A model generated the notes under the pieces. That model was not told where the DNA came from. It made no database searches and worked only from the letters and a program-made list of their open reading frames with translations. A program made the position numbers and the translations under genes. DNA of 64,000 bases from Parcubacteria group bacterium. Its GTDB lineage: Bacteria; Patescibacteriota; Minisyncoccia; Moranbacterales; UBA2206. Positions 3,534 through 54,324 of the stretch are shown piece after piece; positions within the stretch are counted from its first letter, which is position 1, and each line of letters opens with the position of its first letter. The stretch spans positions 14,922 to 78,921 of the forward strand of contig JBAZYF010000004.1 in the NCBI GenBank assembly GCA_041659505.1. Direction: 5' to 3'.

Positions 3534-3674
3534 CTTGCGTATTTGCCTAAAAAAAGTTCGCACGTTCATCCTTCTTAGCATCCAAAGTGTCCGGTAGACC
3601 AGCAAGGGATAGCCAATGCTAGGAAACCGTGCTCTCGAGAACTTTTTTCAGGTAAATATGCAAGTCAGAAAAAT
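3534..3674. repeat. MITE-like element, copy 1 of 2 (TIR CTTGCGTATTTGCC...GGTAAATATGCAAG; conserved core GTTCGCACG...TCGAGAA)
   Basis: About 85% nt identity to 21199..21330 across a 95-nt core. Both copies are bounded by about 20-bp inverted repeats. Confidence 0.7.
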
Positions 3675-3681
3675 ATTGAAG

Positions 3682-6033
3682 CTATTGAATTATCTTTCCT
3701 CCTTTACCCACTTGATCAATCTTAACCGAAAGCAATTTCGACATTCCGTCTTCCCCCATCGTCACGCCATACAGGAGCGACGCTTGACGCATTGTTTCGC
3801 GGTTGTGTGTGATGATTATAAATTGTGTCGAGTCAGAAAGATCTTGGATGATCCGGCCGAAACGCTTGGAATTCGCCTCGTCCAATGCCGCTTCCACTTC
3901 ATCCAGGATAGAAAATGGTGGTGGATTGTGGGCAATAATCGCAAATAGTAAGGCCAAAGATGTCAGTGAGCGCTCTCCGCCAGAAAGCATCGCAAGACTG
4001 GCGATTTTTTTGCCGGCCGGACAAGCGGTGATATCAATACCGATTTCATCTTTGTTGTCAGCATCTTCCTCGATTGCATCTGGCGCCCCTTCCACTTCAC
4101 CTTCCTGCTGGGCAACTTCTTCTTCCGAAAGATCTTCTTTTGTCCGCCGCGCTTTAATTTTAACTTTCGTCAGATGCGCGTCCCCTCCGCCAAAAATGAT
4201 GCGGAAATATTTGGAAAATTCCCGGTTGATTTCATCAAAGGTTTCGTGAAATTTCTCATTCACTTTTTTCTCCATTTCTTTGATTACTTCGCGCAGCGAC
4301 ACCAATGCATTTTCCAAATCGGCTGATTCGGTCGTCAAAAATTGGAAGCGTTTTTCCGTCTCATCATATTCTGTCACCACCAATGGATCGATGCCACCGA
4401 TCTGTTCCATCTGAAATTTCAACTTGGCAATTTCTCGTTCCAAAGAAAATTGGTCGACAATTTCCAGCTTCTTTTCCAGCAGTTCCGCTTCCACTTTCAA
4501 TTCTTCCAAGATACGCGCCCGTAGATCTTCCTCACGCACCTCGATCTTAGCCAATGAAATCTTAAAATCATTAAACTTATCCTTGAAAGAATTAGCCTCA
4601 TCTTGTTTCAAGCGCAACTCTCGCTCAAGCTGAAAAAATTGCTGACGTTTTTGACGATCCAAGGTAATTTCCGCTTGAATTTCCCCTACAATTTTTCGCA
4701 ATTCTTCTTCGAGCGTTTTAATTTCCGCGCGTACTCGCACTGATTTGGCCTTAAGGTCAATGATGGCTTGCGAATCAACGGAAACAACAACTTCCACCGG
4801 TTTTGTTTCCACTTTTTTCACTGGAGCAGGCGTTTCCTTTTTGCCTTTTTCAATATCCCCGCGTAACTCAGTCAGTTTCTGTTGGATCTTCTTCGCCAAT
4901 TCCCGCACTACTTCAATATCTTTCAAATCTTTGGCCACGTTTAACTTTTGCACCAAAATTTCTTGATCCCGCCTGATCTCTTCCAAATTGCCTTTGACAT
5001 AGCTCAGATCGACCGGCTGGCTCTGAATCTTGATTTCTTCGATAATTTGGATGCTTTTTTGCTTTTCCTTTTCCAACTCGATCCGTCCCTCAGAAATGAT
5101 CAACTCGCGCTCCAACTCGTTCAGGCGACTTCTTTTTTCCCGTTGGATTTTTTCCAATTCCTGCAAAGTTTCATTAGTCTTTTCCTCCTTGGAACGCCGA
5201 TTAACTTCATCCATTAGCTTATCCGCTTCGCGCTGAATATTCATCATTCTCGCCCCAAATGTGTCTTTTTCTTCATTGAGCCTGACCTTGTCATCATTAA
5301 ATTTGTTCCAAAGATAAGTATAGAGCTTGGTCTGCTTTTCTTTCAGATCTTTGGAAACTATCTCGCTTTGCGCCGCTTTTTCTGCTTGGCGTTTGAGAAC
5401 CTTGAGGTGCGGCTTGATTTCTTCAATCAGTTCGCCTACGCGTACCAAATTCGCCTTGGTTGTTTCCAGTTTCCGCAGTGACCGTTCTTTTTTGATCTGA
5501 TACTGCTTCACTCCCGCCGCTTCCTCAATCACAAACCGGCGATCAAGCGGGGTGGCATTCAAGACTGAGTCCGCCATACCTTGATTGATAATGGCATGGC
5601 TTTCTTTCCCCACGCCGGCCTTGGCTAAAATATCCACGATATCTTGCAGTCTAACTCGAGAATTGTTGACCAAATATTCACTCTCACCACTGCGAAAAAT
5701 TTTGCGACAAATCGCTACCTCATCAAATTCGAGTGGCAAACGTTTTTCGCTGTTGTCAAAATAGAGCGTGACTTGCGCACTGCCCAATTTAGCTTTTTTT
5801 CCCGATCCGGCAAAAATGATGTCTTCCGATTTTTTACTGCGCAGATTTTTCATCGATTGCTCCCCAATCACCCAACGCATCGCGTCAGCAATATTGGATT
5901 TCCCCGAACCGTTCGGTCCGACAATCGCGGTTATCCCTTGCGCTCCGCCGTCGCTTGCAGACGCCGAAAAATCCAACACCGTTTTTGATGCGAAAGATTT
6001 GAATCCATTGATTTCCAGTTTTTTGAGAAACAT
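3682..6033 (-). CDS. smc: SMC-family chromosome segregation ATPase (short form, 783 aa)
   Basis: N-terminal Walker A GPNGSGKSN and a C-terminal LSGGERSLTSLALLFA signature followed by ILDEVEAALD (Walker B). Long coiled-coil middle. Confidence 0.75.
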   Translation of the reverse strand: MFLKKLEINGFKSFASKTVLDFSASASDGGAQGITAIVGPNGSGKSNIADAMRWVIGEQSMKNLRSKKSEDIIFAGSGKKAKLGSAQVTLYFDNSEKRLPLEFDEVAICRKIFRSGESEYLVNNSRVRLQDIVDILAKAGVGKESHAIINQGMADSVLNATPLDRRFVIEEAAGVKQYQIKKERSLRKLETTKANLVRVGELIEEIKPHLKVLKRQAEKAAQSEIVSKDLKEKQTKLYTYLWNKFNDDKVRLNEEKDTFGARMMNIQREADKLMDEVNRRSKEEKTNETLQELEKIQREKRSRLNELERELIISEGRIELEKEKQKSIQIIEEIKIQSQPVDLSYVKGNLEEIRRDQEILVQKLNVAKDLKDIEVVRELAKKIQQKLTELRGDIEKGKKETPAPVKKVETKPVEVVVSVDSQAIIDLKAKSVRVRAEIKTLEEELRKIVGEIQAEITLDRQKRQQFFQLERELRLKQDEANSFKDKFNDFKISLAKIEVREEDLRARILEELKVEAELLEKKLEIVDQFSLEREIAKLKFQMEQIGGIDPLVVTEYDETEKRFQFLTTESADLENALVSLREVIKEMEKKVNEKFHETFDEINREFSKYFRIIFGGGDAHLTKVKIKARRTKEDLSEEEVAQQEGEVEGAPDAIEEDADNKDEIGIDITACPAGKKIASLAMLSGGERSLTSLALLFAIIAHNPPPFSILDEVEAALDEANSKRFGRIIQDLSDSTQFIIITHNRETMRQASLLYGVTMGEDGMSKLLSVKIDQVGKGGKIIQ

Positions 6034-6157
6034 TAAACCAATCCTGTCTAAAGAATTATTTTCTAACTAATTCCACCCATCTTACTACATTATTATAGTA
6101 CTACACTTTTAGAGAAAAATAAACCCCCAACAGCGTTGACAAAATACTTCCTTGGAT

Positions 6158-7514: not shown

Positions 7515-8933
7515 CTATTCCACACTCAATCCGCTCGGCGCAGTTGGCGAAACAGTATCAGCCTCTCCTTGCAATGGATGCGGATAAGTATATGGAGCGT
7601 ATCCCAAATATGCATTATCTCCTGTCGCAGTAAAAACCATATTGCCTGCGTTAGGGTAAACACTGCCGTCAGTCGGATAGCTGGCTGATGCGCCATTCGC
7701 TCCGGTGAAAGTTTCTTTGCCATGTGTGCAGACATTGCCATATCCATCGGTGGTGTCACCTGCTGCGCATGGGGCGTGGAGGAAAAAATCGCGATCTTGC
7801 AAGAGTCCGGCACTAACATGAGGCGAAGCTTCAACATAGCCATACTCTCCATCATTAAAATCAGCTCCCCGATAAGTATTGTTCCACATAAAAGAATTAT
7901 GCACCTGGTCTTCGGCCGGCCAAGCTGTTCGCAGGATTGACCAATTATCGCTGTAATATTCCTCCTCTTGAAAATAGATCCTTGGATTATATTGAACCGT
8001 TCCCGTGATGGAATTATTAAAAATCAGATTGGCAGAGCCCCGAGTCAAAAACATAAAATCAATTCGCTTGCCATGCTCGACGTTATTATAGAACTCGATA
8101 ACTGATTGACCCCTTCTCTGACAAGAACCGGCTTCCCAATAGCCTGCTCCGCCACAGCCACCATCAGCACTGCCATGAGCCATAAAAGGTGTATAAGTGC
8201 CTACTTCATCCGGTATATCATCAGCATCAAACTCATTATGCCGAACAACCAGTTTTCCGCCATTGAAAGTCGCTATTTGCTCTTGCGTGTAGCCAAGAGT
8301 GTAACTGGCATTGGTAACAAAATGATTATCCTCAACATACAGAGCGTCGGATGTTCCAGCTGCTAGCGAGCTCCAAGATGCATCAGCATTGGTTCGACTG
8401 CCCGAACTAAACTCGACGCCAATTACCGGATTATAAAAATAGTTATGATCAATCAGTCCTTTTAGATGATCAAACAATATTGGCTTGCTGCCAAAGTGAA
8501 AAATATTATTATCAATTCTAATTTCACCACCAGAAATACCACCTTGCATTTCATGCACAAAAATAGCAGCTTCTGGAGTCGCGTTTACCATTTGAAAGGT
8601 AAAATCAGTGATGCGCACCAGACTGCTCGCAGTGAAACCGGTAATGTTGAAAAATCCGTTCGGCATTGTTCCGCCGGCGGTGAGCGTTGTTTCATTACCC
8701 AAAATAGTCACCGCCTTCCCTACTGTAAGCGCTGATGACCAAGTGCACGCTCCGCTGACTGGAAAAGCAATTGTGTCTCCAGTTGATGCGGCATTGTAAG
8801 CCGTTGTGACATCCGCCAAGGAGCAACTGCCGGCAGTATGCGTGTCTGCAAGAGAATTCCTTGCCACCCCAAACACCCCACAAAAAATGATTGCGAGAAA
8901 GAATATTTTTAGTTTTAGATTTTTGATTGACAT
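7515..8933 (-). CDS. secreted right-handed beta-helix (pectin-lyase-fold) protein, paralog A1
   Basis: Signal peptide MSIKNLKLKIFFLAIIFCGVFGVA. Repeated N-x-I/V-x-x-N beta-helix rungs. C-terminal YTPYTYPHPLQGEADTVSPTAPSGLSVE-stop. About 70% identical to the 17058..18566 paralog. Confidence 0.75.
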   Translation of the reverse strand: MSIKNLKLKIFFLAIIFCGVFGVARNSLADTHTAGSCSLADVTTAYNAASTGDTIAFPVSGACTWSSALTVGKAVTILGNETTLTAGGTMPNGFFNITGFTASSLVRITDFTFQMVNATPEAAIFVHEMQGGISGGEIRIDNNIFHFGSKPILFDHLKGLIDHNYFYNPVIGVEFSSGSRTNADASWSSLAAGTSDALYVEDNHFVTNASYTLGYTQEQIATFNGGKLVVRHNEFDADDIPDEVGTYTPFMAHGSADGGCGGAGYWEAGSCQRRGQSVIEFYNNVEHGKRIDFMFLTRGSANLIFNNSITGTVQYNPRIYFQEEEYYSDNWSILRTAWPAEDQVHNSFMWNNTYRGADFNDGEYGYVEASPHVSAGLLQDRDFFLHAPCAAGDTTDGYGNVCTHGKETFTGANGASASYPTDGSVYPNAGNMVFTATGDNAYLGYAPYTYPHPLQGEADTVSPTAPSGLSVE

Positions 8934-8947
8934 TTTTTAGTTAAAAA

Positions 8948-10708
8948 TTATTCTACTGCCAGTCCGGTCGGAGATGTTGGCGAAGTGGTATCGGCTTCGC
9001 CTCGGAGTGGATGAGGATAGGTGTATGGCGTGTAATAAACAGACCAGGCATTTCCATTCCATTTATAAAGCGTTCCTGAAATATCATCACTCCTATTTTC
9101 TGAACCGACGCCTTTGGCCCCAATCAGAGTTGAGACATTGGAACAAGATTGATTGGTGACCCAAAAACCAACTCCTACATTAGTTCCGCTGCCTGGATTG
9201 ATCGCGTTCATTTGCGCCAATGTCCCGCAACCTACACCAGATGTTCCGTCGAAACTACTGGTATAATTCCAATAATCAACATTTTGAGTGATCGTATACG
9301 GCGAACCGACTGAAGCATCACTACAAAAATCAAAACCTTTTGTCATCGGCATCAGGCTGCCGCCGGAATAATTGATCCAGGTATATGTATTTTGGACATG
9401 TTGAGAATAGTTTGATCCGTCATTTTGACCGGCAGGATCCTGGCAGGAATCGCAAGAATATTGATTATAGGTAATCGTCGGTTTGTAATATGAATCATTA
9501 TCGTTATAAAACATCAATAACCAACTGCCGCGATGTGCTATCCAATTTGAAAAAGCCGGAGCGTTGACTATTTTGTTTCCATATACTTCCAGCTTGATAT
9601 TGGACCATTCTTGGCAATTGATATAAGTTGGATCACACAAATCATGTCCCTCATAACCGCAATCCCAATCCCTGCCCACCCGGTAGGAATCTCCGGACGC
9701 ATTGGCTGAACCCATAGCGTTAAAATGCAAAGTGTCATTGGTATTGGTCGTGGTAGTAATAGATGTGATCAAATCATATTGCCCCTTAGTTGTGTTATAA
9801 ACCAACGTACCGACTTTTGCTCCCAGCGCAACAAAATTTTTGGCAGTATCAATCAAAGTAGTTGTTGATCCACCCGTAGCCGTTCCAGTCGTGACGAGTG
9901 ATGATTTCATCGATTGCAAGCCATGATTAACCCAAAGACCGGATAGAGTGGCATTGGTCAAATCTTCAGTATTGTACCGAAACACCAAACCAGGCGAACC
10001 TTGCCCGTCATCAAAAAGCCCTCCTTCCATGGTTGTGGTCAAACTGACTAAATTGTCCTCTACAAATAATCCTACGTCCGTTCCGTATTCTCTCGGAACA
10101 ATTCCCCATGAAATGCTGTCATTTCCGCTCGGCCTGACCAGATAATCAACATTTATGAAATGATTCAAATAAATTACACCGTAGACTGGGCCATCCACCA
10201 TTATCATCGTTCCGTTAACTCCGCTATTTTGCAATATATTATTATGAATTTTAATATTGGATATTGCGTTGCTATTGCTTGAATTTATTATCCGCAATGA
10301 GCCTTGAGCTTTATAGGTTGAATCGCCATCCAAAGTAAATCCACTAAACTCAAAGGTCGCATCTGAAGTAATAGAATCCAGGTCGGGATAGTATAAAATT
10401 TGTCCTCGGTCAGTCGCGCCAGCAGCAATGATTTTAGTTGTTCCGCCGATTCCGCCTTCCAGCGCTATGCCTTTGGTAATATTCAATAAATGGCCATAGC
10501 CGTCGGCTCCTGTTGTTTCCGTCGACCAAGTAGCTGTTCCGGCACAAACTTGAATTGTGTCTCCCTTGCTAGCCGCTGCCACGGCCGCAACAACTGCAGG
10601 TTGAGCAGGGCCAACACAAGCCGCCAAAGAATTCCCAGCCACCCCAAAAATACCGCCAAAGATTATTGCAAGAAAAATAATTTTTAATTTTAATTTGTCA
10701 TTTTGCAT
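8948..10708 (-). CDS. secreted beta-helix protein, paralog B1 (true start at internal MQNDKLKLK; the ORF track extends it to 10843)
   Basis: Signal peptide KLKIIFLAIIFGGIFGVA. AACVGPAQPAVVAAVAAASKGDTIQVCAG N-domain shared with B2. C-terminal YTPYTYPHPLRGEADTTSPTSPTGLAVE-stop. Confidence 0.75.
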   Translation of the reverse strand: MQNDKLKLKIIFLAIIFGGIFGVAGNSLAACVGPAQPAVVAAVAAASKGDTIQVCAGTATWSTETTGADGYGHLLNITKGIALEGGIGGTTKIIAAGATDRGQILYYPDLDSITSDATFEFSGFTLDGDSTYKAQGSLRIINSSNSNAISNIKIHNNILQNSGVNGTMIMVDGPVYGVIYLNHFINVDYLVRPSGNDSISWGIVPREYGTDVGLFVEDNLVSLTTTMEGGLFDDGQGSPGLVFRYNTEDLTNATLSGLWVNHGLQSMKSSLVTTGTATGGSTTTLIDTAKNFVALGAKVGTLVYNTTKGQYDLITSITTTTNTNDTLHFNAMGSANASGDSYRVGRDWDCGYEGHDLCDPTYINCQEWSNIKLEVYGNKIVNAPAFSNWIAHRGSWLLMFYNDNDSYYKPTITYNQYSCDSCQDPAGQNDGSNYSQHVQNTYTWINYSGGSLMPMTKGFDFCSDASVGSPYTITQNVDYWNYTSSFDGTSGVGCGTLAQMNAINPGSGTNVGVGFWVTNQSCSNVSTLIGAKGVGSENRSDDISGTLYKWNGNAWSVYYTPYTYPHPLRGEADTTSPTSPTGLAVE

Positions 10709-10725
10709 TTTTATTTTTACACTTT

Positions 10726-12264
10726 TTAATTTACCATGAGTCCTGTCGGAGAAGTCGGAGAAATAGTATCCTCTCCGCCTCTCAGTGGATGTGGGTAGGT
10801 ATATGGTTGATAATAGAGCGTCCAAGTATTCGGTGCTGTGCATTTATAAAATCTTCCGGCTTGTGTATATGTTTTCATATCACCCATTTCTTCAGGGACT
10901 TCAGAGCAAGGCGAGTAGGAAGTCTGCCAATAGCCGTCGCCAATTGCACAAGAACTTGTCGGGACAGCACTTCCACAATTGATCCCCTTTTGCACATTGC
11001 CATCTAAAGTATTGGGATTATAATTCCAATAATCCACATTTTCCGTAATAGCATATGGTGAACCGACTGCATAATGCGCGCAATTGTCTTCCGAGACATA
11101 GATCGGGCGATTAGTACCATTGCCCAAATTATTCCAGACATAAGTATTTTGGACATGCATCGAGTATCTAGTTCCAGTTCCATTCTGGCAACTATCGCAA
11201 GAATATTGATAAATATCAGGAAGTGGCATATGCCCCGTTCCTGTTACTACATTATTGAACATCAGCATCCAACTACCCCGCAAACGCATCCATTCTTGCG
11301 GCGTGCTATAAGGATTGTAAAGATTAGAATGGATATTCCCGTACCACTCTGTTTTTATCTGCGACCACTGCTCACAACTTCGTCTTTCTGGATAACAAGA
11401 ATTGGGAACATTAAAAGGCGCATAGCCACACTGCAAATTCACAAAGCTATCATTATCATCTGTTGTCATGCTTTGCAATCCATGCAAATCTTGCCACTGA
11501 TTTCCATCCAAAAGCACTTGTCCCAAATCATATGTGTTATAGCGAATAATCATACTTCCACCCTGTCCAGCTGAAAATGCACCAGCCGATGGAACCGTAG
11601 TTGCCGATATCACATTATCTTCAAAGAAAAAATTATTGCCCGTGCCATATTCCCGTTGCCCCAGATCCCAAGATTTTTCATTACGTCCCTCTTCCCGAAT
11701 GACCGTTTCGCATTCGATAAATGTGTTGGCATATGCCACGCCATAGACCGGTCCGTTCAAGTTGATTGTTTCCTGGCGTTCATTTTTGAAAATATTGTCA
11801 TGGATTTTTATATTCGACAACGGAGTTGTTCCCGAATTACTGACATCCAGCACTCCTTCGTAATAAGTTATGTTATTTGCATCAACAGTAAACCCACTAA
11901 ATTCAAATGGAGTGTCGTTGGAAATTGAAGTCGTGTCAGGTTCGTAAAGAATCGCTCCATATGGCGCAGCGCCAGCAAGAGTTATGCTTGTCGTTCCGCC
12001 TATGCCACCTTTCAAATTAATTCCCTTTTTCATACACAACGCTGTGTTACCAGCGCATCCTTGCACTCCGGCCGTCCAAGTTGCGCTTCCCGCACAAACT
12101 TCCACTGTATCTCCATAAGTTGCGGCGACCACAGCAGAAACCACAGCCTCCTGAGCCGGTCCCACGCAAGCCGCCCAAGATTTCTCCGCCATACCAAAAA
12201 TACCGCAAAAGATTATCGTGAGAAAAAATATTTTTAGTTTTAGGTTTTGGATTTTGAAATTCAT
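10726..12264 (-). CDS. secreted beta-helix protein, paralog B2
   Basis: Signal peptide MNFKIQNLKLKIFFLTIIFCGIFGMA. C-terminal YQPYTYPHPLRGGEDTISPTSPTGLMVN-stop. Confidence 0.75.
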   Translation of the reverse strand: MNFKIQNLKLKIFFLTIIFCGIFGMAEKSWAACVGPAQEAVVSAVVAATYGDTVEVCAGSATWTAGVQGCAGNTALCMKKGINLKGGIGGTTSITLAGAAPYGAILYEPDTTSISNDTPFEFSGFTVDANNITYYEGVLDVSNSGTTPLSNIKIHDNIFKNERQETINLNGPVYGVAYANTFIECETVIREEGRNEKSWDLGQREYGTGNNFFFEDNVISATTVPSAGAFSAGQGGSMIIRYNTYDLGQVLLDGNQWQDLHGLQSMTTDDNDSFVNLQCGYAPFNVPNSCYPERRSCEQWSQIKTEWYGNIHSNLYNPYSTPQEWMRLRGSWMLMFNNVVTGTGHMPLPDIYQYSCDSCQNGTGTRYSMHVQNTYVWNNLGNGTNRPIYVSEDNCAHYAVGSPYAITENVDYWNYNPNTLDGNVQKGINCGSAVPTSSCAIGDGYWQTSYSPCSEVPEEMGDMKTYTQAGRFYKCTAPNTWTLYYQPYTYPHPLRGGEDTISPTSPTGLMVN

Positions 12265-12297
12265 TTGGAATTTGTCCGCCAGCTGGCGGATTAAAAT

Positions 12298-13917
12298 TTA
12301 TTCCACTGCCAGCCCCGAAGGCACAGTAGGCGGCGTCGTGTCACTTTCTCCAGAAACATATTCATAGGCACCAATGTCCCAGAGACCAGAGGATGGACGA
12401 GCGACGCCGTTTTTGTCAAAACAAATCTCCGGTGTTTCTGAGCACAATGCAGTCAGATTAAACCCGGCGCTGATGGCAGCTGATCCGACGCCCAACGTAC
12501 CGTTCGCTTGAAGGTTGAGAGCGGAAACTGTCGGCTGACTACCATGCTGGTCAAAACCACATTCTCCGGCCGGATAGACGCCGACCGTATTCCAGTTACT
12601 AAAGGAATAGATGGCGCCGGTTTGATTGGACCAGTTATCAGCGTCTCCGCAATAGAAATTATAGTCAATAGCAGACAAGTCCGGCCAAGGAATTTCCGAT
12701 CCATAAAGAGAAATGAAAGTGCCGGCATCATTTCTGATCAAATTGTTTTTGACAATTGTTGTCCCATCGGGATCAGTAAGACTAATTCCTATTCCACCAA
12801 CCCCATTGTCAATTATGGTATTATTGACCACCAAAAGATTAGTAAGCAGGTCATGATTCCAAGCGCCTGTAACGATCCTCCCATTGGCGGGATAATTTAT
12901 CGGGTCATAAGACGAGATGAAAAGATTGTTGAATATCTTATACCCGTCCATGATACACCCCTCTCCGCCATCAGGATTTAAGAATATGCCAAAGCTAGTT
13001 GTGTGGCTATCTACTGACGGATATTTGGAATAATAACCGTCAAAATAGTTGTCATAGATTTTGACATTAGACGATGTGCCGCTACAGAAGGCGTGGATTC
13101 CGTTGTGATGATAGAAATTGGACGGCTCGTCCCAATTATAGCAATCGCTCATTTCATTATCGTGGATCGAGCTGTTGCTAGAAGCTCCGATTTTGATGTG
13201 CCGATTGATATATTGGCTGTAATTGTTTTTCACCTCTGTTCCGCTGCCAGAAATATAAACCGCGCATTCAGCGTTTTTGATCGTGTTACTGTAAATCGTA
13301 TTATTATCCCCTGTCGTTACGATTCCTGTCGCCGTATAAAAATCTCCGTCATCAGTATTGGCAATATGTATCTGAAGATTTTCGATGTCCATTTTAGTAA
13401 CGCTGCAGTGGGAGCCAGCTACATTAATACCTGTACCTTCTGATTGGTAGGCGCAAGTCCCGCCAGGACAAGCTTGGCCAATGGTACCATCCAGAGTCGC
13501 GACGATTTTCCCGTTCGTACCGCCATCTACATTAACATAGTTGTGAGAAATATAAATTGCTCCCGTGGCATTTGGCCAAGCCGGAGAAGTCAAAACAGCA
13601 TCCGTTTCGAATTTGACCGTGATCGGTGCGCCGAATGAGCCATCGCCAGCCGAAGTGATCGCGTTAGTATTATAGGGCTCCGTTATGGTGCCGCATATGT
13701 GCAGTGTATTCCCAGCGATCCAATTGGAAGCATTATTAATACCATAATAAGAATCACCCAAGTCATAGGCATTGGCACAGTCTGTCCCATTCTCACTGCC
13801 TGCTGCCGATGAAGCAAAATAAACATCCGCCGCGAAAGACTCTCCTGCCATTCCAAAAACCCCGCAAAAAAGAATTGCAAGAAAAATAATTTTAAATTTT
13901 AATTTGTAATTTTGCAT
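12298..13917 (-). CDS. secreted beta-helix (PbH1-repeat) protein, paralog C1
   Basis: Signal peptide. NNTIYSNTIKNAECAVYISGSGTEVKNN and LVVNNTIIDNGVGGIGISLTD parallel-beta-helix repeats. C-terminal GAYEYVSGESDTTPPTVPSGLAVE-stop. Confidence 0.75.
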   Translation of the reverse strand: MQNYKLKFKIIFLAILFCGVFGMAGESFAADVYFASSAAGSENGTDCANAYDLGDSYYGINNASNWIAGNTLHICGTITEPYNTNAITSAGDGSFGAPITVKFETDAVLTSPAWPNATGAIYISHNYVNVDGGTNGKIVATLDGTIGQACPGGTCAYQSEGTGINVAGSHCSVTKMDIENLQIHIANTDDGDFYTATGIVTTGDNNTIYSNTIKNAECAVYISGSGTEVKNNYSQYINRHIKIGASSNSSIHDNEMSDCYNWDEPSNFYHHNGIHAFCSGTSSNVKIYDNYFDGYYSKYPSVDSHTTSFGIFLNPDGGEGCIMDGYKIFNNLFISSYDPINYPANGRIVTGAWNHDLLTNLLVVNNTIIDNGVGGIGISLTDPDGTTIVKNNLIRNDAGTFISLYGSEIPWPDLSAIDYNFYCGDADNWSNQTGAIYSFSNWNTVGVYPAGECGFDQHGSQPTVSALNLQANGTLGVGSAAISAGFNLTALCSETPEICFDKNGVARPSSGLWDIGAYEYVSGESDTTPPTVPSGLAVE

Positions 13918-13928
13918 TTTTACACTTT

Positions 13929-15431
13929 TTAATTTACCATAAGTCCGCTAGGAATATTTGGCGGAGTAATGTCAATTTCTCCTTGCAACGGATGTGGATA
14001 GGCGTAAGGAATATAATTCCAACTTGTTTTCGTTCCACAATCAATCGACGGATCGTGATAACAAAAATCTCTATCTTGAGCAAACCACGCACTGTCCCCT
14101 GCGATAGTCGCAGAATCATTACACGCGCCACCCGTCGCACAAGTTGCCGTAGTCCCATTATTATACCAATAGACTGGGGAGGGATATTGATTCCTTCCTC
14201 CAGCTCCATACTCCTGACCCCAGCCCGTCTGATCCCGACAAGGATAGCCATTTCCTCCACTGCTTCCATCTACATTATCCACAGTAGCAAGGCAAATTGC
14301 GCTCCCATCTGTACCGATAGGACAATCCGAATTACTCGTACAAGCTACTATGCACGATCCACTTGCACTTCCATAACAGTCTCCATCGCCTGAGCATACT
14401 GCATGGTTTCCACCGCTGCAATGCATAAAAGTAGGAGTATTACAAGCTCTTACTATTGCTCCTGTGCAAGCCGCACCCAAAAATCCAGACCCAACAGTTG
14501 CGCGCCAAACTTGGGCGAAACCCGGAGTCCAAAAATCGCCAGTAATCGTGTTGTCGTACACAATCGCACCCCCGCCCCGCAGAGCAACAGCTGTTAAATT
14601 ATTACAATTACCCCCGACACAATTTATTGTATTGTTGTAGACTTCTGTCATTCTTTGACCGCGCGCAGCAGGAGTGCTCCCCGTATCATGCATCTGGATA
14701 TCACCACCGTTAATAATATTATGCCTCACAACCAGCCTGACGCCATGCTCAGTGTCTGTCAGATCACCGTTAGCACCACCTGTCCAAGTGAAGGTCGAGT
14801 CTTCGATAAAAATAGCCCAATCAGTGCCATACTGATCTGCACTTTGCCAAGTAGAATTATTGCCAGCTATCTTAAGAAGCCTTGACCATTGATTGCTTAG
14901 AAGGGTGATATGATCAAACAACGCCTTTGGATGAGATGGGATGAGCCACCATGGATCAATCGTGAAAGCGTGTCCATTAATGTTGGTAAATTTTAGATGA
15001 TCCGCTCGAAGAGAATTCCAGATTGTGCTTTCATCCCCACTCAGGCGGATAAGTTGTTCTTCTAGCCCTCCACCGCCACCCACAGTTCCTGCAAACCCCA
15101 GATCGGTAATTCTAAAATTCGCCCCACTTGTAAGCGAAACGCTGAACAAGGTTGTATTATTAGCCGTCAAGGTTGTGGCATCGCTTCCATTGCCTTTTAT
15201 TGTTATCCCCTTTGTCACCGAGACATAAGACGACCATGTCGCCGATGTGCAGTTAAGATAGACCGTATCACCAGCAACAGCAGCATCAACAGCAGACTGA
15301 ACATTCGCTTGGGAACAGTTTGTCACATTAATTATCGTAGCTTGAGAATTTTCCACCAATCCAAAAATCCCGCCAAAGATAATTGCCAACAAAAATATTT
15401 TTAGTTTTAAATTGTCATTTCGCATTTTCAT
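13929..15431 (-). CDS. secreted beta-helix protein, paralog D
   Basis: Signal peptide MKMRNDNLKLKIFLLAIIFGGIFGLV. Cys/Gly-rich middle. C-terminal YIPYAYPHPLQGEIDITPPNIPSGLMVN-stop. Confidence 0.7.
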   Translation of the reverse strand: MKMRNDNLKLKIFLLAIIFGGIFGLVENSQATIINVTNCSQANVQSAVDAAVAGDTVYLNCTSATWSSYVSVTKGITIKGNGSDATTLTANNTTLFSVSLTSGANFRITDLGFAGTVGGGGGLEEQLIRLSGDESTIWNSLRADHLKFTNINGHAFTIDPWWLIPSHPKALFDHITLLSNQWSRLLKIAGNNSTWQSADQYGTDWAIFIEDSTFTWTGGANGDLTDTEHGVRLVVRHNIINGGDIQMHDTGSTPAARGQRMTEVYNNTINCVGGNCNNLTAVALRGGGAIVYDNTITGDFWTPGFAQVWRATVGSGFLGAACTGAIVRACNTPTFMHCSGGNHAVCSGDGDCYGSASGSCIVACTSNSDCPIGTDGSAICLATVDNVDGSSGGNGYPCRDQTGWGQEYGAGGRNQYPSPVYWYNNGTTATCATGGACNDSATIAGDSAWFAQDRDFCYHDPSIDCGTKTSWNYIPYAYPHPLQGEIDITPPNIPSGLMVN

Positions 15432-15442
15432 TTTTACACTTT

Positions 15443-16990
15443 TTAATCTACCATAAGTCCGCTCGGTGCTCCGGGCGCAGTCATATCACTTTCTCCAGAA
15501 ACATATTCATAGGCGCCAATGTCCCAGGCACTGCCTTGCGGACGAGGGACACCTAAATTGTCTGCTGTGAAATAGGAGGACAGGGAAACGCCGTGATCCT
15601 TAGCAACCACATCTGTTGCAGTCGACGCATAATTCGCATCCAGTGTTGGCTGACTGACTGTGCTGTGCGCATCAAAATTGTAGCCATGACTGGCGGTAGC
15701 TGCTTTCCAACCAGCAAAATCATATTGCGCCCAACTACCGTAAGAAAAAACTCCATCTCCGTAATATACATTATAATCACACTGCGCTACTGCATCATAA
15801 TCATAAGGTTCCACAACAAAGGAGGTGTTGTAAATCAGATTATTTTTAATAATATGCCCGATGTCCATCCCTCCACCCCAACCACCGACTTGCAATGACA
15901 ATCCCCCATCTAAGCCGATGAAAGTATTATTTGCCACAACGGCATAATTACTGCCCTTTAAATTCATCAATCCATTTCCGCAAGCACCATCAGGATCAAC
16001 TTCTTTGACTAAAACATTATTATAAATCTCGGGAGAATAAATATAGCCTTCCAGAAAAACCAATGCGGTTGAATTTGTTCCACACATTCCTGAAAAGTTA
16101 TTTGAATATATTTCCAATCCCTCTAGTCTCGATCCCTCATGCACCGCCCAAGCATGAATTAGGTTTGTGTGAATTTCCGGCGCACCGCTCCATTTGCGAC
16201 TTTTATGGAAAGTGTTGTCGTGAATTTGCACATCAGACATTGTTTCGTTGGTATTTTGCGAACCGACCGTCACACAACTGTGTCCGCAATCATCACAAAC
16301 ATTTCCGCTGATTTCTGCACCACTCGAACCGGCGCGATAGCCAATATACATTCCATTAGATGCGTCTTTCAAAATATTGTCCTGTAACGTTAGGTTGGTA
16401 GAAATTCCATCAAACCCGATGCCGATACAAATATTATTGGCATCCGTTCCTTCCACTCTTTCATACAACGGATAAACGGCTAAATTTTTAACTGTAACAT
16501 TCGAACCGTTATTGAAAAATACTCCGGCTATGTCGTACTGAAAAGTTCTGGCCGTCCCGTTGTCCGTTGCTTCAATAAGGCCGTTGGTTCCGCCATCAAT
16601 TGTGATGTAGGATTTGTTACTTCCATAAATCGCCGCATCCCCATTGCTTCCACTTTGGTACCAATGATTTTTGGACATTTTCGCGCCAGTTTCAAAGAAT
16701 ATGGTAATGGGACTCTCTGACGTTCCCGATCCTTGGATTGTGATTGGGGATGAAAAAGTTCCGCAAAGATGCGCGGTGTCTCCAGCACTGATTTTATTTG
16801 TGCCACTTCCCCAATTGCCAGAAGTGTTGAGCCATGAGACCGAATGCGCATTCACGCAATCCGCGCCAGTATCGGAGCCTGATACATTTTGAGCAATATA
16901 CAACTCTTCCGCGTGAGAATCCTCCATCAATCCAAAAATTCCGCAAAAAAGCACTACCAGAAAAAACATTTTTAGTTTTAGCTTTTGCAT
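15443..16990 (-). CDS. secreted beta-helix protein, paralog C2 (start at internal MQKLKLKMFF; the ORF track extends it to 17041)
   Basis: Signal peptide. Beta-helix rungs. C-terminal GAYEYVSGESDMTAPGAPSGLMVD-stop, pairing with C1. Confidence 0.75.
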   Translation of the reverse strand: MQKLKLKMFFLVVLFCGIFGLMEDSHAEELYIAQNVSGSDTGADCVNAHSVSWLNTSGNWGSGTNKISAGDTAHLCGTFSSPITIQGSGTSESPITIFFETGAKMSKNHWYQSGSNGDAAIYGSNKSYITIDGGTNGLIEATDNGTARTFQYDIAGVFFNNGSNVTVKNLAVYPLYERVEGTDANNICIGIGFDGISTNLTLQDNILKDASNGMYIGYRAGSSGAEISGNVCDDCGHSCVTVGSQNTNETMSDVQIHDNTFHKSRKWSGAPEIHTNLIHAWAVHEGSRLEGLEIYSNNFSGMCGTNSTALVFLEGYIYSPEIYNNVLVKEVDPDGACGNGLMNLKGSNYAVVANNTFIGLDGGLSLQVGGWGGGMDIGHIIKNNLIYNTSFVVEPYDYDAVAQCDYNVYYGDGVFSYGSWAQYDFAGWKAATASHGYNFDAHSTVSQPTLDANYASTATDVVAKDHGVSLSSYFTADNLGVPRPQGSAWDIGAYEYVSGESDMTAPGAPSGLMVD

Positions 16991-17057
16991 TTTATTAAAA
17001 AATAAATTGCTACCAGTGTTACTTACCTTGTTACGTAACAAGGTACTTACTCCAGTT

Positions 17058-18566
17058 TTAATCTACGCTCAATCCGCTCGGTGAAACTGGCGGAGTGATA
17101 TCAGTTTCTCCTTGTAATGGATGCGGATAAATATATGGGGTGTAATCAACGTAAGCGTTATCGCCCGTAGCCGAAAAAATCATATCACCTGCGTTAGGAT
17201 AGACACTATCATCGGTCGGATAACTAGCTGATGCGCCATTTTGCCCAATGAATGTTTCCTTACCGTGAGTGCAAACATTTCCATGTCCATCAGTCGTGTC
17301 TCCTGCTGCGCAGGGAGCGTGGAGGAAATAGTCGCGATCCTGGCGCAGAAACGGGTTGGATGTCGTGACAAGTTCATCACCACAAGTACCAGTTCCACTT
17401 CCCGTGCAACAAGCCATCGGAACACCATTGCCGGTACAGTCATAGTTGGTCGGGTATGTCCCGATAGAGCCAACCAGGCCATCATTAAAATCATGCCCGG
17501 CATAAATATTATCCCAAACAAAAGTGTTATGCACCTGATCTTCTGCTGGCCAAGCAGTTCGATGTATTGACCAATTATCACTAATATATTCTTCTTCGGA
17601 AAAATATATCCGCGGATTATTACTTACTATACTTGAAATGGAGTTATTATAAACTAAATTTGCTGAACCACGGGAGATAAACATAAAATCGATCCGTTTT
17701 CCATGTTCGATATTATTATAAAACTCAATGACAGATTGGCCTCTTCGCTGGCAAGAACTGGCTTCCCAATAGCCTGCTCCACCACAACCACCATCCGCGC
17801 TTCCGTGCGCCATGAAAGGCGTGCAAGTTTCCAGGCCATCCGGCACATTATCACAATCAAACTCATTATACCTTACAACTAATTTTCCACCATTATTTGT
17901 GCCGATTTGTTCTTGAGTATACCCCAGAGTATAATTTGCATCAGAAACAAAATGATTGTCTTCGATAAAAATTGCGTCCACAGTGCCAGCTGCCAGCGAA
18001 ACCCAAGCGGCATCTGCATTGGTTCTACTACCGGCGCTTATCACAACTCCTTGGATTGAATTATGAAAGTAGTTATGATCAATTAGGCCTTTTATATGAT
18101 CAAACACTATGGCCTTGTTCCCATAGTAAAAAGTATTATTGTCGATTCTAATATTTCCCCCATCTACTCCGCCCTGCATATCGTGCACATATACAGCGGT
18201 GGCAGGAGTCCAATCCATCATTTGAAAAGTAAAGCCACTGACACGAACAAGGCTACTGGCGGTAAAACCGGTAATGTTGAAAAAGCCATTACTCATAGCG
18301 CCGTCAGAGATTAAATTCGTATTGTTACCTGAAATTGTCAAAGCCTTGCTGACCGTAAACGCTGATGACCAAGTACACACCGTAAATGCAGGAAAAACAA
18401 TCGTGTCTCCACTCGAAGCAGCATCGTAGGCTGACTGGGCGTTTTCCAATGAGCAGTCCCCGTCACCATAATCCGCAATATTTATAGTTGCCGCAAAAGA
18501 ATTTTTTACTAATCCGAAAACCCCGTAGAAAAAAATTATGAGAAAAAAGATTTTTAGTTTTTGCAT
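17058..18566 (-). CDS. secreted beta-helix protein, paralog A2
   Basis: Signal peptide MQKLKIFFLIIFFYGVFGLV. C-terminal YTPYIYPHPLQGETDITPPVSPSGLSVD-stop. Close paralog of A1. Confidence 0.75.
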   Translation of the reverse strand: MQKLKIFFLIIFFYGVFGLVKNSFAATINIADYGDGDCSLENAQSAYDAASSGDTIVFPAFTVCTWSSAFTVSKALTISGNNTNLISDGAMSNGFFNITGFTASSLVRVSGFTFQMMDWTPATAVYVHDMQGGVDGGNIRIDNNTFYYGNKAIVFDHIKGLIDHNYFHNSIQGVVISAGSRTNADAAWVSLAAGTVDAIFIEDNHFVSDANYTLGYTQEQIGTNNGGKLVVRYNEFDCDNVPDGLETCTPFMAHGSADGGCGGAGYWEASSCQRRGQSVIEFYNNIEHGKRIDFMFISRGSANLVYNNSISSIVSNNPRIYFSEEEYISDNWSIHRTAWPAEDQVHNTFVWDNIYAGHDFNDGLVGSIGTYPTNYDCTGNGVPMACCTGSGTGTCGDELVTTSNPFLRQDRDYFLHAPCAAGDTTDGHGNVCTHGKETFIGQNGASASYPTDDSVYPNAGDMIFSATGDNAYVDYTPYIYPHPLQGETDITPPVSPSGLSVD

Positions 18567-21168: not shown

Positions 21169-21198
21169 GAATTTTAAAATTAATTTTTTATCCTGGAA

Positions 21199-21330: not shown

Positions 21331-21379
21331 TCTGCACTCTTCTTATTTTAACTTTAATTTTAAAAAATGTCGAGAAGCA

Positions 21380-35381: not shown

Positions 35382-35404
35382 ATTATTTTAATTTCACGAT
35401 TTAA

Positions 35405-36766: not shown

Positions 36767-36779
36767 AATGATTGAGGCT

Positions 36780-37208: not shown

Positions 37209-37250
37209 ATTTTTTTAAAAGTTAATACTTAGTGATTCCAAGTCTAACAT

Positions 37251-37270
37251 ACACCCCCTGGGGGTGTCAA
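37251..37270 (-). promoter_or_regulatory. candidate CsoR operator: perfect G/C-tract palindrome ACACCCCC-T-GGGGGTGT overlapping a TTGACA -35 hexamer upstream of csoR
   Basis: Seen directly in the sequence. Established CsoR operators are CCCC-N-GGGG type pseudo-palindromes. Confidence 0.55.
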
Positions 37271-37297
37271 GGGTTTACTAGTTTTCCTTCGCCTTGC

Positions 37298-40444: not shown

Positions 40445-40609
40445 ATTGTCATCCTGAGCGAAATTCTGTACTCAGAACGCAGTCGAAGCCTGCCTGCCGG
40501 TAGGCAGGGATCTACTTACCAAAACCTCTAGTTTTGAAGATATAGACTAAACTTAGGATAGCGCAAGGCAGATTCTTCGACTCCACTACGTTTCGCTCAG
40601 AATGACAAT
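40445..40609. repeat. MITE-like element (TIR ATTGTCATCCTGAGCGAAA ... TTTCGCTCAGAATGACAAT) containing the CCTGCCTGCCGGTAGGCAGG hairpin
   Basis: 19-bp terminal inverted repeats with 1 mismatch. The inner hairpin is the reverse complement of the hairpin at 1549..1570. Confidence 0.7.
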
Positions 40610-40613
40610 ATTT

Positions 40614-41996
40614 CTACTCTACTATAAATTTACCACGAACCATCCCCATCCAACAACTAAACGGGATTTCGCCGACTTTATCAGGAGGAGTAAAATTCAC
40701 GACATTATCTCCAGAGCTGATACTTTGCGAAATCTTGAGACTAGGCACAATAATTTTATTCGTACAGCTTGTCACACTATCCCCTTTGATCACCCAACGC
40801 ACCGGCACGCCCTTTTTCAAATGTAAGGTATTTGGTGAGAATCCTGCGTTAGTCACATGCATTTCCACCACTTGCTCTGCCACATCAGTTTTTGCCGTTC
40901 CCATTTGTTCTTTTTGATTACTTTGATCGCCGAACACATTGCCCGATACGCCAACCAACGCCAAGCCGGAATTGAACGTATAAAAGGCAAAAATAACAAC
41001 TAGCATGCCAGCTACCTTTTGAAAAATCGCCGCATTTTTACCCTTGCTCCAAGCGGTAGTCACGCCAAGAGTGAGAAGGGACGGCACAGTGCCGAGTGCA
41101 AAAAGAAACATCCCAAGCCCTCCGCGCATAAAACTGCCCGAAGCAATGGCAAGGATCTGCATACTTTGCGTAAAACCACAGGGCAGAAAAAAAGTCATAA
41201 TTCCTAAGAGAAAAGGCGCGGCTGGATTTTGAGATTTTTTCAGCCTATTCCAGGGCGCGCTGAAAAATCTCGGCATCCGCATTCCCAGACTGGCGATATC
41301 AGGAAATAATCCCAATACATTAAGACCCAAAATTGCTAAAACCACTGCAATAATGATAGTGTAGACCGCGACAAAATTTCCACTGATATTTATCTCTCCG
41401 CCAATCGCACCGAGCAGTCCACCTAGGACAAAAAATCCGCCTAACCGGCCAAGATGGAAAAATAAGTTCGGCTTCACGGCTCCACCTAAAAACCCGCGCT
41501 TATCACCTTTATATTTTTCTGAAAAAGCAATCACCACCGATCCCACTACGACCAAGCAACTAGAAACAGAAGCGACAAGTCCGATGAGAAAGGCTGTTCC
41601 AAAATCAGCGCCAGAACCAGTGACACCGATTTTTTGCCCGAAACTAGAACCTTGAAACAGTTGAAAACCAAAAATTATTAAAATAACAAAAGCCACGGCC
41701 CAAAGCCAAGATTGCCAAGAACTCTTTCCAGCCTTCTCTATAGACATGATCGTTTTTCGCTCCGATGCAGTATGACCAAATTTCTCTACTATCTTTTTAA
41801 CTTCAGAAAAATCCGGCTCGGTATCTGCATAATCAAGTTCCACACTGCCTTTTTTTCGATCGGCACGAATCTTTTTTACGCCCGGAACGCCAGCCAATTC
41901 ATCATCGAGCAACTTCTCGCAACTAACACAATGCATCCCTTGGATATAGATTATTTTTGTTTGCATATTCATCCCCCACCACTTTTTCGCTCGCAT
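40614..41996 (-). CDS. HMA-domain / DsbD-CcdA-like transmembrane / C-terminal cupredoxin-like domain fusion protein
   Basis: GMHCVSCEK HMA motif. 6-8 TM helices with Cys residues (SSCLVVVGS, FFLPCGF). C-terminal beta-rich domain with ...SCWMGM. Confidence 0.5.
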   Translation of the reverse strand: MRAKKWWGMNMQTKIIYIQGMHCVSCEKLLDDELAGVPGVKKIRADRKKGSVELDYADTEPDFSEVKKIVEKFGHTASERKTIMSIEKAGKSSWQSWLWAVAFVILIIFGFQLFQGSSFGQKIGVTGSGADFGTAFLIGLVASVSSCLVVVGSVVIAFSEKYKGDKRGFLGGAVKPNLFFHLGRLGGFFVLGGLLGAIGGEINISGNFVAVYTIIIAVVLAILGLNVLGLFPDIASLGMRMPRFFSAPWNRLKKSQNPAAPFLLGIMTFFLPCGFTQSMQILAIASGSFMRGGLGMFLFALGTVPSLLTLGVTTAWSKGKNAAIFQKVAGMLVVIFAFYTFNSGLALVGVSGNVFGDQSNQKEQMGTAKTDVAEQVVEMHVTNAGFSPNTLHLKKGVPVRWVIKGDSVTSCTNKIIVPSLKISQSISSGDNVVNFTPPDKVGEIPFSCWMGMVRGKFIVE

Positions 41997-42104
41997 CCGC
42001 GATTAAGCTAGAGGTAATTTATTAAATTATGCTATTGACATATCATGTGATTTATTAAAATAAAAAACGTAATCATAAAAGCGAAAAAGTGGTGGGGGAT
42101 AAAC

Positions 42105-42374
42105 TTACTTAGACATCTTATTCAATCGCAAAATCTCATCGATCATTTCTTGCTTTCTTTTCTCGTTCGTTCCTTTCATAGCATTTATAAAACAACTATT
42201 GAGATGGCGCGCTAACAGCTTATCATTAGCAGATTTTAAAAGTCCCATCACAGCCAAATTCTGTTGCATGATCGAAACACAATATTCCCCACCCTCGACC
42301 ATCGTAATCACTTTCGCCAAATGCGTTCGCGCCTTTTTAAGCCCAATCAAAATTTGCCCATCTTCTTTTTGCAT
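42105..42374 (-). CDS. csoR: CsoR/RcnR-family metal-sensing repressor, second copy
   Basis: LKKARTHLAKVITMVEGGEYCVSIMQQNLAVMGLL...HLNSC matches the DUF156 pattern. Confidence 0.78.
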   Translation of the reverse strand: MQKEDGQILIGLKKARTHLAKVITMVEGGEYCVSIMQQNLAVMGLLKSANDKLLARHLNSCFINAMKGTNEKRKQEMIDEILRLNKMSK

Positions 42375-53086: not shown

Positions 53087-53155
53087 ATGTTTTGATCAGT
53101 ATTGAAGAGAAACTGACATATTCTCTAAAAAACCGATTAATTAACTTTCTTAGGA

Positions 53156-54142
53156 CTAAAAACCAACATACATTATCTCTTCTTTGATTTGCGTATCATA
53201 ACCTTCTCGTAATTTTTGCTTGATGATTCCAGCCAGAATGATCACGTCTTCCGCTGTAGCTGTTCCGTCATTGATGAAAAAATTGGCATGTTTTTCACTC
53301 ACCATCACTCCACCGATTTTCTTCCCCTTAAATCCAGCCTCTTCGATCAACCAGCCAGCCGGAATTTTTCCATTTGGCGCTTTTGCTCCAGTTTCTTTTT
53401 CAAATTCTTGCAAAACTTCTGGATTATCTACGACTGGATTTTGGAAAAAACTGCCCGAGCTGAAACCTTTTGGCTGATGCTCGATGCGTTTTTTTGCGAT
53501 TTCCTTCATCCTCTCTGTGATTGTTTTTTTGTCCCCTTTTTCTAATTTTAACTTGACTGATAGGACCACCAGGTTTGGATTTTTCTTAAAAAGGCTAGTG
53601 CGATAGGCATAATCACAATCCGCTCTTTTGTATTCCTCAACCTTACTACGATTATCGGAGATTTTTAGCGCACGCACACTTTCCAAATTATCCGCCATTT
53701 CCCCGCCAAAGGCTCCGGCATTGCCCCGCACCGCTCCGCCAACCGTCCCAGGAATTCCCATCGCCCACTCCATTCCAGTCAAACTATTTTCCCTAGCAAA
53801 ATTAACAACACTCGACAAACTTTCCCCCGCCCAGCATTCAATTGATTCTCCTACAACTTTAATTCCCGTTTGTTTCTTGCTTGCCTGCCAAATCTTTAGC
53901 GCAGGCAGGTCTCTTGTTTCTTGTACCTTGATGATTAGTCCATCAAAGCCCTGGTCGCTAAAAAGAATATTGCTCCCACCGCCTAACATAAAAATTTCCA
54001 ATTTATTTTCTCGAGCAAAATCCAACGCCTCCAAAAGCTCCGTTTCATTTTTCACCTCCGCAAAAAACTTCGCCGGTCCGCCGATTTTGAAAGTAGTGAG
54101 TGGTGCTAAGGGGATGTTTTTTTGGATGATTATCTTGGACAT
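53156..54142 (-). CDS. murB: UDP-N-acetylenolpyruvoylglucosamine reductase
   Basis: FKIGGPAKFFAEVKNETELLEALDFARENKLEIFMLGGGSNILF FAD-binding N-terminus. Catalytic C-terminus. Confidence 0.9.
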   Translation of the reverse strand: MSKIIIQKNIPLAPLTTFKIGGPAKFFAEVKNETELLEALDFARENKLEIFMLGGGSNILFSDQGFDGLIIKVQETRDLPALKIWQASKKQTGIKVVGESIECWAGESLSSVVNFARENSLTGMEWAMGIPGTVGGAVRGNAGAFGGEMADNLESVRALKISDNRSKVEEYKRADCDYAYRTSLFKKNPNLVVLSVKLKLEKGDKKTITERMKEIAKKRIEHQPKGFSSGSFFQNPVVDNPEVLQEFEKETGAKAPNGKIPAGWLIEEAGFKGKKIGGVMVSEKHANFFINDGTATAEDVIILAGIIKQKLREGYDTQIKEEIMYVGF

Positions 54143-54156
54143 AATTGAAAAATATG

Positions 54157-54324
54157 TGTCATTCCCACGGAGGCGGGAATCCAGGTTCCACTAATTATAA
54201 ACCATAGAAAATTGAGCTACGAGCCTGAAAACTCTCTACCTCAAAAAGTCTTGAATTTTAATAATTCGTTTTCTCTTTATTTTTAGCTTGAGGTGCCTGG
54301 ATCCCCGCCTTCGCGGGGATGACA
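54157..54324. repeat. MITE-like palindromic element, TGTCATTCCC family, copy 2
   Basis: TGTCATTCCCACGGAGGCGGGAATCCAGGTTCCACTAATTATAAAC ... GAGGTGCCTGGATCCCCGCCTTCGCGGGGATGACA. Homologous along its whole length to 27341..27509. Confidence 0.8.

Follow-up and report, generated by a model that had tools for sequence, protein, structure and literature searches.

A 64,000-nt stretch of the genome of a Parcubacteria group bacterium, called the window in the following and corresponding to about positions 14,936-78,935 of the ENA contig ERZ27247358:k141_1339487 (152,425 bp), carries ten small non-coding hairpin elements of six families, designated (i) to (vi), all of which lie in intergenic spacers. 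The elements are gained and lost between close relatives. With a probability of about 0.55, we regard them as non-autonomous, hairpin-forming mobile repeats of the type of REPINs (doublets of repetitive extragenic palindromes, or REPs, that form hairpins) and Neisseria intergenic mosaic elements (NIMEs), and not as classical miniature inverted-repeat transposable elements (MITEs) that depend on a DDE transposase. Families (i) to (vi) are new families, in new hosts, of known kinds of repeats (REPIN-, NTS/NIME- and MITE-like), while the mechanism of their spread is one that we infer. The window has a G+C content of 42.6% and a negative GC skew throughout, its minus strand holds nearly all genes, and the homologues of its proteins carry the names Candidatus Moranbacteria, Moraniibacteriota or Parcubacteria. 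In all, about 76 kb of this genome were read, and about 1 Mb of nrdD-centred related loci of the Candidate Phyla Radiation (CPR) served for comparison; loci other than the window are identified below by numbers preceded by L.

Inventory, insertion polymorphism and dispersal of the elements

The repeats were recovered by repeat search and blastn, and their folding was assessed by z-scores of the minimum free energy (MFE) against shuffled sequences. All ten elements fold as a single long hairpin with z-scores of -5 to -10. Nine of them had been listed in the initial annotation of this DNA and each was recovered at its coordinates; the list was incomplete, as the element of family (vi) at 41966-42105 was missing from it. 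Family (i) is represented by two direct copies of 74% identity, one at 3532-3666 (+) with the ends GGCTTGCGTATTTGCC / GGTAAATATGCAAGTC and an SMC-like gene and a PMT gene on either side, the other at 21196-21332 (+) with arms of 29 nt that are 90% complementary, flanked by genes for a metallo-beta-lactamase-fold protein and a cyclophilin. The three copies of family (ii) (83-86% identity) lie in a metal-efflux operon that encodes a CsoR-type repressor, a membrane fusion protein (MFP) and a resistance-nodulation-division (RND) pump: ii-1 (31910-32084, +) at the RND/YgaP-like junction, where it touches the stop codon of the RND pump, ii-2 (35398-35574, +) at the MFP/RND junction and ii-3 (36776-36952, +) at the CsoR/MFP junction. 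Family (iii) comprises a convergent doublet of NTS/SRM hairpins (TGTCATTCCCGCGAAGGCGGGAATCYAG) with an interior of 113 nt (iii-1, 27341-27509) and a second copy of 81% identity in the MurB / P-type ATPase spacer (54157-54324), one end of which fits the SRM pattern while the other is degenerate. The single element of family (iv) (40445-40609) has the NTS-like ends ATTGTCATYCTGAGCGAAA..GTCGAAG and a small hairpin, CCTGCCTGCCGGTAGGCAGG, nested inside, and that of family (v) (28320-28474) consists of a doublet of GC-rich ends that fold on themselves (CCCTTCGCCC-TCCG-GGAGAAGG...). The element of family (vi) ends in TTCATCCCCCACCACTTTTTCGCT / AGCGAAAAAGTGGTGGGGGAT, has arms of 24 nt that are 96% complementary and lies directly upstream of the HMA-DsbD gene.

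The metal-efflux locus was compared with that of five relatives (L003, L006, L007, L235 and L237), whose MFP identities amount to 81% (L003), 69%, 63%, 62% and 61%. The CsoR/MFP spacer measures 9-11 nt in all five relatives, as opposed to 196 nt with ii-3 in the window. Likewise, the MFP/RND spacer, filled by ii-2 here, measures 15-25 nt in L006, L007, L235 and L237, and in L003 this junction holds an element of family (i) (11172-11312) and not of family (ii). Furthermore, ii-1 is missing from the RND/YgaP spacer of L003 and L006. As compact orthologous spacers are filled by elements here, the elements are insertions, and the comparison of relatives for presence or absence that had been suggested for them thus reveals insertion polymorphism. 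Family (iv) does not occur at its junction in L003 and is present there in the lineage with 61% identity, while the junction between an 86-aa open reading frame (ORF) and the NrdG gene is occupied by family (v) here and, in L027, by an NTS doublet. The copy of family (vi) upstream of the HMA-DsbD gene is kept in three lineages (the window, L003 and L235). An additional (vi)-type copy lies between nrdD and the 86-aa ORF in L003, L010 and L011, where the window has none; it corresponds to family (vi) in the termini only in L003 and L010, and with 71% identity over 143 nt in L011. The same junction can thus be occupied by different families in close relatives, and the spacers of these streamlined genomes turn over fast.

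The initial annotation had described dispersed families, with the reservation that they might be single-locus inverted repeats; copies at other places of this genome and in the genomes of related CPR bacteria confirm their dispersal. A second copy of family (iv) is located in the same genome about 9 kb left of the window (L211, 20208-20352). The genome of L003 contains two copies of family (v) and one of family (iv) close to its own RayT-like transposase gene (L246; see below), and further copies of family (v) were found in L012 and L027. Among the nrdD-linked CPR loci, families (i) and (ii) are confined to this genome and L003, and many loci contain the ends of families (iii), (iv) and (v). 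A contig scan with the core of family (i) yielded one real copy, in L234 (a metagenome-assembled genome assigned to Moraniibacteriota in GTDB), and 19 probable chance matches; the scan took species representatives and did not return the copies of the window, whose genome is probably not among them. The copy in L234 (7697-7843) is located at the MFP/RND junction of a paralogous operon with an RND protein of 25-30% identity. The MFP/RND junction is therefore the site of three of the seven known copies of families (i) and (ii), in three genomes and with differing families and orientations, and the operon of ii-2 contains two more of the seven. Possible reasons for this clustering are that the elements target the site, that they hop locally or that intercistronic hairpins are selected for.

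The 22-nt hairpin CCTGCCTGCCGGTAGGCAGGGA of family (iv) recurs in inverted orientation and with 100% complementarity at 1550-1571, 3' of tRNA-Glu, as had been noticed before. This solo copy (TCCCTGCCTACCGGCAGGCAGG) is the same unit as the hairpin nested in family (iv), and the unit (CCTGCCTRCCGGYAGGCAGG) is dispersed: about 1.06 Mb of CPR loci contain it at six distinct sites, which include window positions 1550-1571, L015 6721, L019 17143, L050 145 and L051 4127, and once it is nested in family (iv).

With respect to density, the window was compared with related DNA in two crude scans. A strict scan for ungapped inverted repeats gave densities per 10 kb of 0.78 for the window and 0.52 for 979 kb of CPR loci. 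An intergenic energy scan, which applies no G+C correction and also catches tRNAs and terminators, gave 1.25 per 10 kb in the window and 1.37 per 10 kb in the related CPR loci. On these two scans, the density of elements is far above chance, close to that of the clade and not exceptional, which does not support the earlier view that it is unusual for a streamlined genome. Some relatives (L007, L078 and L087) contain no element at all. Inverted-repeat detection by blastn of the window against its own minus strand was insensitive and recovered two of the ten elements.

Ends and stems of the families

Families (i) and (ii) agree at 15 of 16 positions of their ends, for which the majority consensus is GACTTACG(T/C)ATTTRCC, and in the best copies the common end reaches about 19 nt (..CCCGA). 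The shared terminus of about 14 bp proposed in the initial annotation is thus confirmed and longer than assumed, and the interiors of the two families are indeed unrelated, as no similarity between them was detected by blastn. A 100-nt element in L035 (463-562) has these ends as well, around an interior that is unrelated to the other two. Three unrelated interiors with one end fit a single end-recognising enzyme. The proposal that one transposase recognises these ends gains from the third family; it is not supported further, as no insertion sequence (IS) with such ends was found in 1.2 Mb of related DNA or in IMG/VR, and no target-site duplication at seven (i)/(ii)-type copies. Among four copies of family (i), 11 of the 28 outer-stem pairs are changed on both sides, few are broken and one G.U pair is invariant, and among the three copies of family (ii) five stem pairs are changed on both sides. 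Compensatory change over whole stems is a signature of REPINs rather than of MITEs that rely on a DDE transposase, and the same pattern was described for REPINs (Bertels and Rainey, PMC3116915). All five copies of families (i) and (ii) in the window are oriented alike, GC skew is uniform in this region, and in all five the plus strand folds 3-8 kcal/mol better.

Classical MITEs would be deletion derivatives of an IS with a DDE transposase, mobilised in trans via their terminal inverted repeats. Several properties of the elements agree with this explanation, namely long terminal inverted repeats, a length of 100-180 nt, the lack of coding capacity, several dispersed copies, insertion polymorphism and an end of 16-20 nt that is common to three families with unrelated interiors. 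We nevertheless consider it unlikely. No consistent target-site duplication was observed at seven (i)/(ii)-type or eleven (iii)-type copies, a check that had been recommended in the initial annotation; the sole direct repeat near any copy, the 6-nt CTATTG beside the L003 copy, is offset from the ends of the element. Neither an autonomous IS nor a pair of (i)/(ii) ends at the distance of an IS was found in 1.2 Mb of related CPR loci, and a scan of the viral sequences of IMG/VR for this end gave no match. The only DDE transposase seen, an ISAs1-like protein split into two ORFs directly after the RND gene of L007 (14490-15700), was rejected as the parent IS, as its ends (GGCACGGCTGGTACGTTCT) are unrelated. 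Moreover, compensatory change extends along the entire 28-bp stem and is not limited to a conserved transposase-binding end, and the ends of family (iii) are a nuclease site already known (see below).

Except for the first base, the ends of family (iii) agree with the consensus CGTCATTCCCGCGMAVGCGGGAATCYRG of the Neisseria Transformation Sequence (NTS); they also fit the search pattern for Ssn-related motifs (SRM; HGTCWYN(0-2)YYVSBRHN(0-5)WNVSBRGN(0-2)RNCYNB). Three of the four ends match this pattern (27341 (+), 27509 (-) and 54324 (-); 0.16 expected from shuffled sequences), and the fourth (54157) is two substitutions away from it. Both copies fold as hairpins and lie outside genes. The NTS contains dRS3, and small GIY-YIG nucleases of the Ssn type bind the NTS hairpin and cut beside it only as single-stranded DNA (ssDNA); the arrangement NTS-ssnA-NTS resembles an insertion sequence (Chenal et al., 2025, PMC11893778). 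Since the ends of family (iii) are a known site of an ssDNA nuclease, they count against an origin as DDE-type MITEs. In the initial annotation, families (iii) and (iv) were treated as MITE/REPIN-like, and neither the NTS/SRM identity of (iii) nor the NTS-like ends of (iv) were recognised. The latter have the GTCAT leader and the GAATCT trailer of the NTS, but do not meet the SRM pattern.

In 1 Mb of CPR DNA there are eight pairs of adjacent SRMs, all of them arranged as convergent doublets, and the (iii)-type doublets have sharp TGTCAT...ATGACA boundaries. Scanning IMG/VR revealed the core of the NTS motif in >120 stretches, on contigs of 32-72% G+C, and a 27-base signature of the family (iv) end on eight viral contigs of 41-59% G+C with no GIY-YIG gene beside the motif. 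In two of the loci from the NTS scan (L131 and L191, both non-CPR) a GIY-YIG gene has NTS hairpins on both sides, which form a convergent pair in L191, and the CPR doublets look like the non-coding counterpart of this convergent NTS-gene-NTS unit. The GIY-YIG genes present in the related CPR loci L045 and L050 have no flanking motifs. Immediately downstream of iii-1, two tandem paralogous genes (26702-27013 and 27018-27329, both -) encode proteins of 103 aa without a family match, which are conserved in L003 as proteins of 107 aa and 109 aa.

Candidate enzymes and alternative explanations

A gene that the initial annotation had missed encodes a RayT-like Y1/HUH transposase of 228 aa (57161-57847, -), which was assigned by a match to Pfam Y1_Tnp (PF01797; 28.3 bits, cut-off 23) together with a fold match. 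The HUH histidines and Tyr157 are invariant across 22 homologues. The AlphaFold model of the protein (pLDDT 78.8) has its best fold match in 4ER8, TnpA_REP bound to a REP hairpin, followed by the TnpA proteins of IS608 and ISDra2; searching PDB with a sequence profile of the family gave no match, and this one came from the fold search alone. The family comprises 4,827 relatives, and Moranbacteria and Parcubacteria account for many of these. In the window, the gene is separated by spacers of 12-14 nt from its neighbours, a P-type ATPase gene and an orphan ORF of 487 aa, whose product retrieved itself only in a homologue search. The corresponding spacers measure 2 and 5 nt in L246 and 31 and 4 nt in L249, and the homologues in relatives have equally short spacers and quite different neighbours. 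The bare RayT-like gene may thus itself move or be shuffled. The protein is a plausible candidate for the enzyme of some hairpin family.

In the mechanism that we propose, the elements would spread in the form of ssDNA hairpins, which structure-specific ssDNA enzymes with genes elsewhere in the genome would cut and join. A nuclease system of the Ssn type (GIY-YIG) would act on family (iii) and probably on family (iv), while one end-recognising enzyme would serve the superfamily of (i), (ii) and the L035 element, whose defining end is GACTTACGCATTTRCC. For the latter enzyme, no candidate other than the RayT-like protein was seen. Insertions between cistrons would form long RNA hairpins, and an effect on operon expression is predicted to be secondary. 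Going beyond this scheme, CPR genomes might run several ssDNA-hairpin systems in parallel: the bare RayT-like Y1 family would mobilise the GACTTACGCATTTRCC superfamily and other plain hairpins as a RAYT variant without coupling to REPs, the NTS doublets would derive from NTS-ssnA-NTS in a MITE-like manner, and the repeated occupation of one junction would reflect targeting or selection for intercistronic hairpins. This wider picture is speculative and, taken as a whole, rather improbable.

A number of observations speak against the interpretation as REPIN- or NIME-type repeats. The RayT-like protein reaches 25 bits on the NCBIfam equivalog REP_Tyr_transpos RAYT, for which the cut-off is 80, and no REP or REPIN flanks its gene in the window, L246 or L249. 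Flanking by their own REPs is the positional hallmark that ties RAYTs to REPs (PMC5581495), and as flanking repeats are lacking, the RayT-like gene fails this hallmark. The window lacks a GIY-YIG/Ssn gene, and in the 9.3 kb added leftward no such gene was called. In addition, families (i), (ii) and (vi) end in plain long inverted repeats as in MITEs, and not in REP units that fold on themselves. The better-folding strand of families (i) and (ii) is the C-rich one and not the one expected on the lagging-strand template according to the IS608 model, and the family (i) copy in L234 is oppositely oriented to its operon.

Alternatively, the elements could primarily be RNA or DNA structures that act in cis and are maintained for the host, for instance as intercistronic mRNA stabilisers, RNase III processing sites or hairpins with operators, with mobility being incidental. 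The positions of several copies would suit such a role: three copies of family (ii) lie between cistrons of one metal-efflux operon, the MFP/RND junction is occupied in three genomes including a paralogous operon, and three lineages retain family (vi) directly upstream of the HMA-DsbD start codon. The G.U pair that is conserved in family (i) and the better folding of one strand by 3-8 kcal/mol in families (i) and (ii) point in the same direction, and an RNase III is encoded in the window (18681-19397, -), which bears on the fate of long hairpins in transcripts. However, most orthologous operons work without the elements, the same families occur in unrelated gene contexts, the strand that folds better runs antisense to the genes here and the copy in L234 is inverted. 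In a search of Rfam 15 at gathering and permissive thresholds, tRNA-Glu alone passed and no element matched; the only sub-threshold matches fall on ii-2, at chance level. Intrinsic terminators were rejected as an explanation, as no terminator-like signal was found at the elements. Maintenance for a host function thus appears even less probable than classical MITEs.

Chance palindromes or assembly artefacts can practically be dismissed. It is true that contigs tend to break at such repeats, and a Logan contig of the same organism terminates within an NTS hairpin about 3 kb right of the window (L210, 1-33). However, the strict inverted-repeat scan found five repeats in the window and 0.1 in shuffled sequences, and the families recur in other genomes. 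The initial annotation had raised the doubt that the elements are artefacts, which is ruled out by the agreement of independent assemblies: the JGI contig L002 carries ii-2 and ii-3 base-for-base as in the ENA contig, and they are therefore not products of assembly.

Relation to known systems and neighbouring genes

Correia, RUP and ERIC-type elements are examples of bacterial MITEs. The elements of the window resemble bacterial MITEs in length (100-180 nt), terminal inverted repeats, the lack of an ORF, a location between genes and within operons and shared ends, and differ in that neither target-site duplications nor a parent IS were found and that the stem covaries over its full length. With palindrome-associated elements derived from IS200/IS605 and with the bacterial interspersed mosaic elements (BIMEs) of E. 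coli they have in common the dependence on hairpins, the lack of target-site duplications, a strand-specific logic and the presence of the Y1 enzyme class in the genome. IS200/IS605 elements, however, have subterminal hairpins without terminal inverted repeats, whereas the two ends pair along 25-60 bp here.

As in REPIN/RAYT systems (PMC3116915, PMC5581495), families (iii) and (v) are inverted doublets of short self-folding palindromes that form a long hairpin, stems show compensatory changes, target-site duplications are lacking, the elements are intergenic, and a Y1/HUH protein with TnpA_REP as its nearest solved fold is encoded in the same window. They differ from REPINs in the isolated RayT-like gene that stays below the equivalog cut-off, in the coexistence of several unrelated families and, for families (i), (ii) and (vi), in the lack of a self-folding REP unit at each end. 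REPINs occur in tens to hundreds of copies per genome, a number to be set against the 76 kb of genome read here. The nearest system to family (iii) is that of NTS/dRS3/SRM and Ssn (Chenal et al., 2025, PMC11893778), in which the motifs are likewise extragenic hairpins with a directional GTCAT leader. The small single-domain GIY-YIG gene ssnA (cd10448) of this system is often flanked by the motif (PMC11893778), and no ssnA gene was found in the DNA of this genome that was examined. The hosts here are CPR bacteria, and Patescibacteria are not named in the main text of PMC11893778. In contrast to the direct arrays of Neisseria-type contigs, the CPR motifs form single convergent doublets (eight of eight pairs), and family (iv) has only the GTCAT...GAATCT frame in common with the SRM. 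As with NIMEs, the motif delimits units of 70-180 nt; NIMEs are bounded by dRS3 (ATTCCC-N8-GGGAAT) and usually occur in tandem arrays, while the units described here are single inverted doublets. A literature search on MITEs and CPR gave nothing relevant, and one on peptide motifs encoded by the repeats (IPAFAGMT and others) found no papers.

These results extend hairpin-type mobile repeats, including the recently described NTS/SRM motif, to the ultra-small genomes of CPR bacteria, and they raise the question which hairpin family, if any, is the substrate of the RayT-like protein that is abundant in this group. CPR bacteria depend on DNA uptake. The window contains a gene for the ComEC competence channel (22268-23899, -), which bears on the entry of ssDNA and is also relevant to the reported role of Ssn/NTS in transformation. 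On the practical side, metagenome contigs break at such repeats, which also give rise to spurious ORFs. Insertion even appears to occur in frame, as in the N-terminal tail of NrdD: at about 30965-31000 (-), an in-frame GC-rich hairpin of nrdD (CCCGCCCGCAACGCTTCGCGTAGCGATGCGGGCGGG) encodes PARNASRSDAGG in the Lys-rich tail; this hairpin is present in L003 (PARNATHSVAGG) and not in L006, and it appears to be a repeat inserted within the coding region.

Some further features of the window were noted. Seven tandem paralogous genes (7515-18566, -) encode proteins of about 470-630 aa with conserved N- and C-terminal blocks; none of the three members scanned has a Pfam match. Two genes encode CsoR-type repressors (36963-37208 and 42105-42374, both -), the first of which has the palindrome ACACCCCCTGGGGGTGT (37235-37275) upstream, while the ends CCCCCACCAC / GTGGTGGGGG of family (vi) are located between the second and the HMA-DsbD gene. 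Finally, the 86-aa ORF right after nrdD (28538-28798, -) duplicates the C-terminal glycyl-radical domain of NrdD (PF13597, positions 509-562) and is conserved in L003 and L006. By analogy with GrcA, which we take to play the corresponding part for PFL, it may act as a spare-part protein for NrdD.

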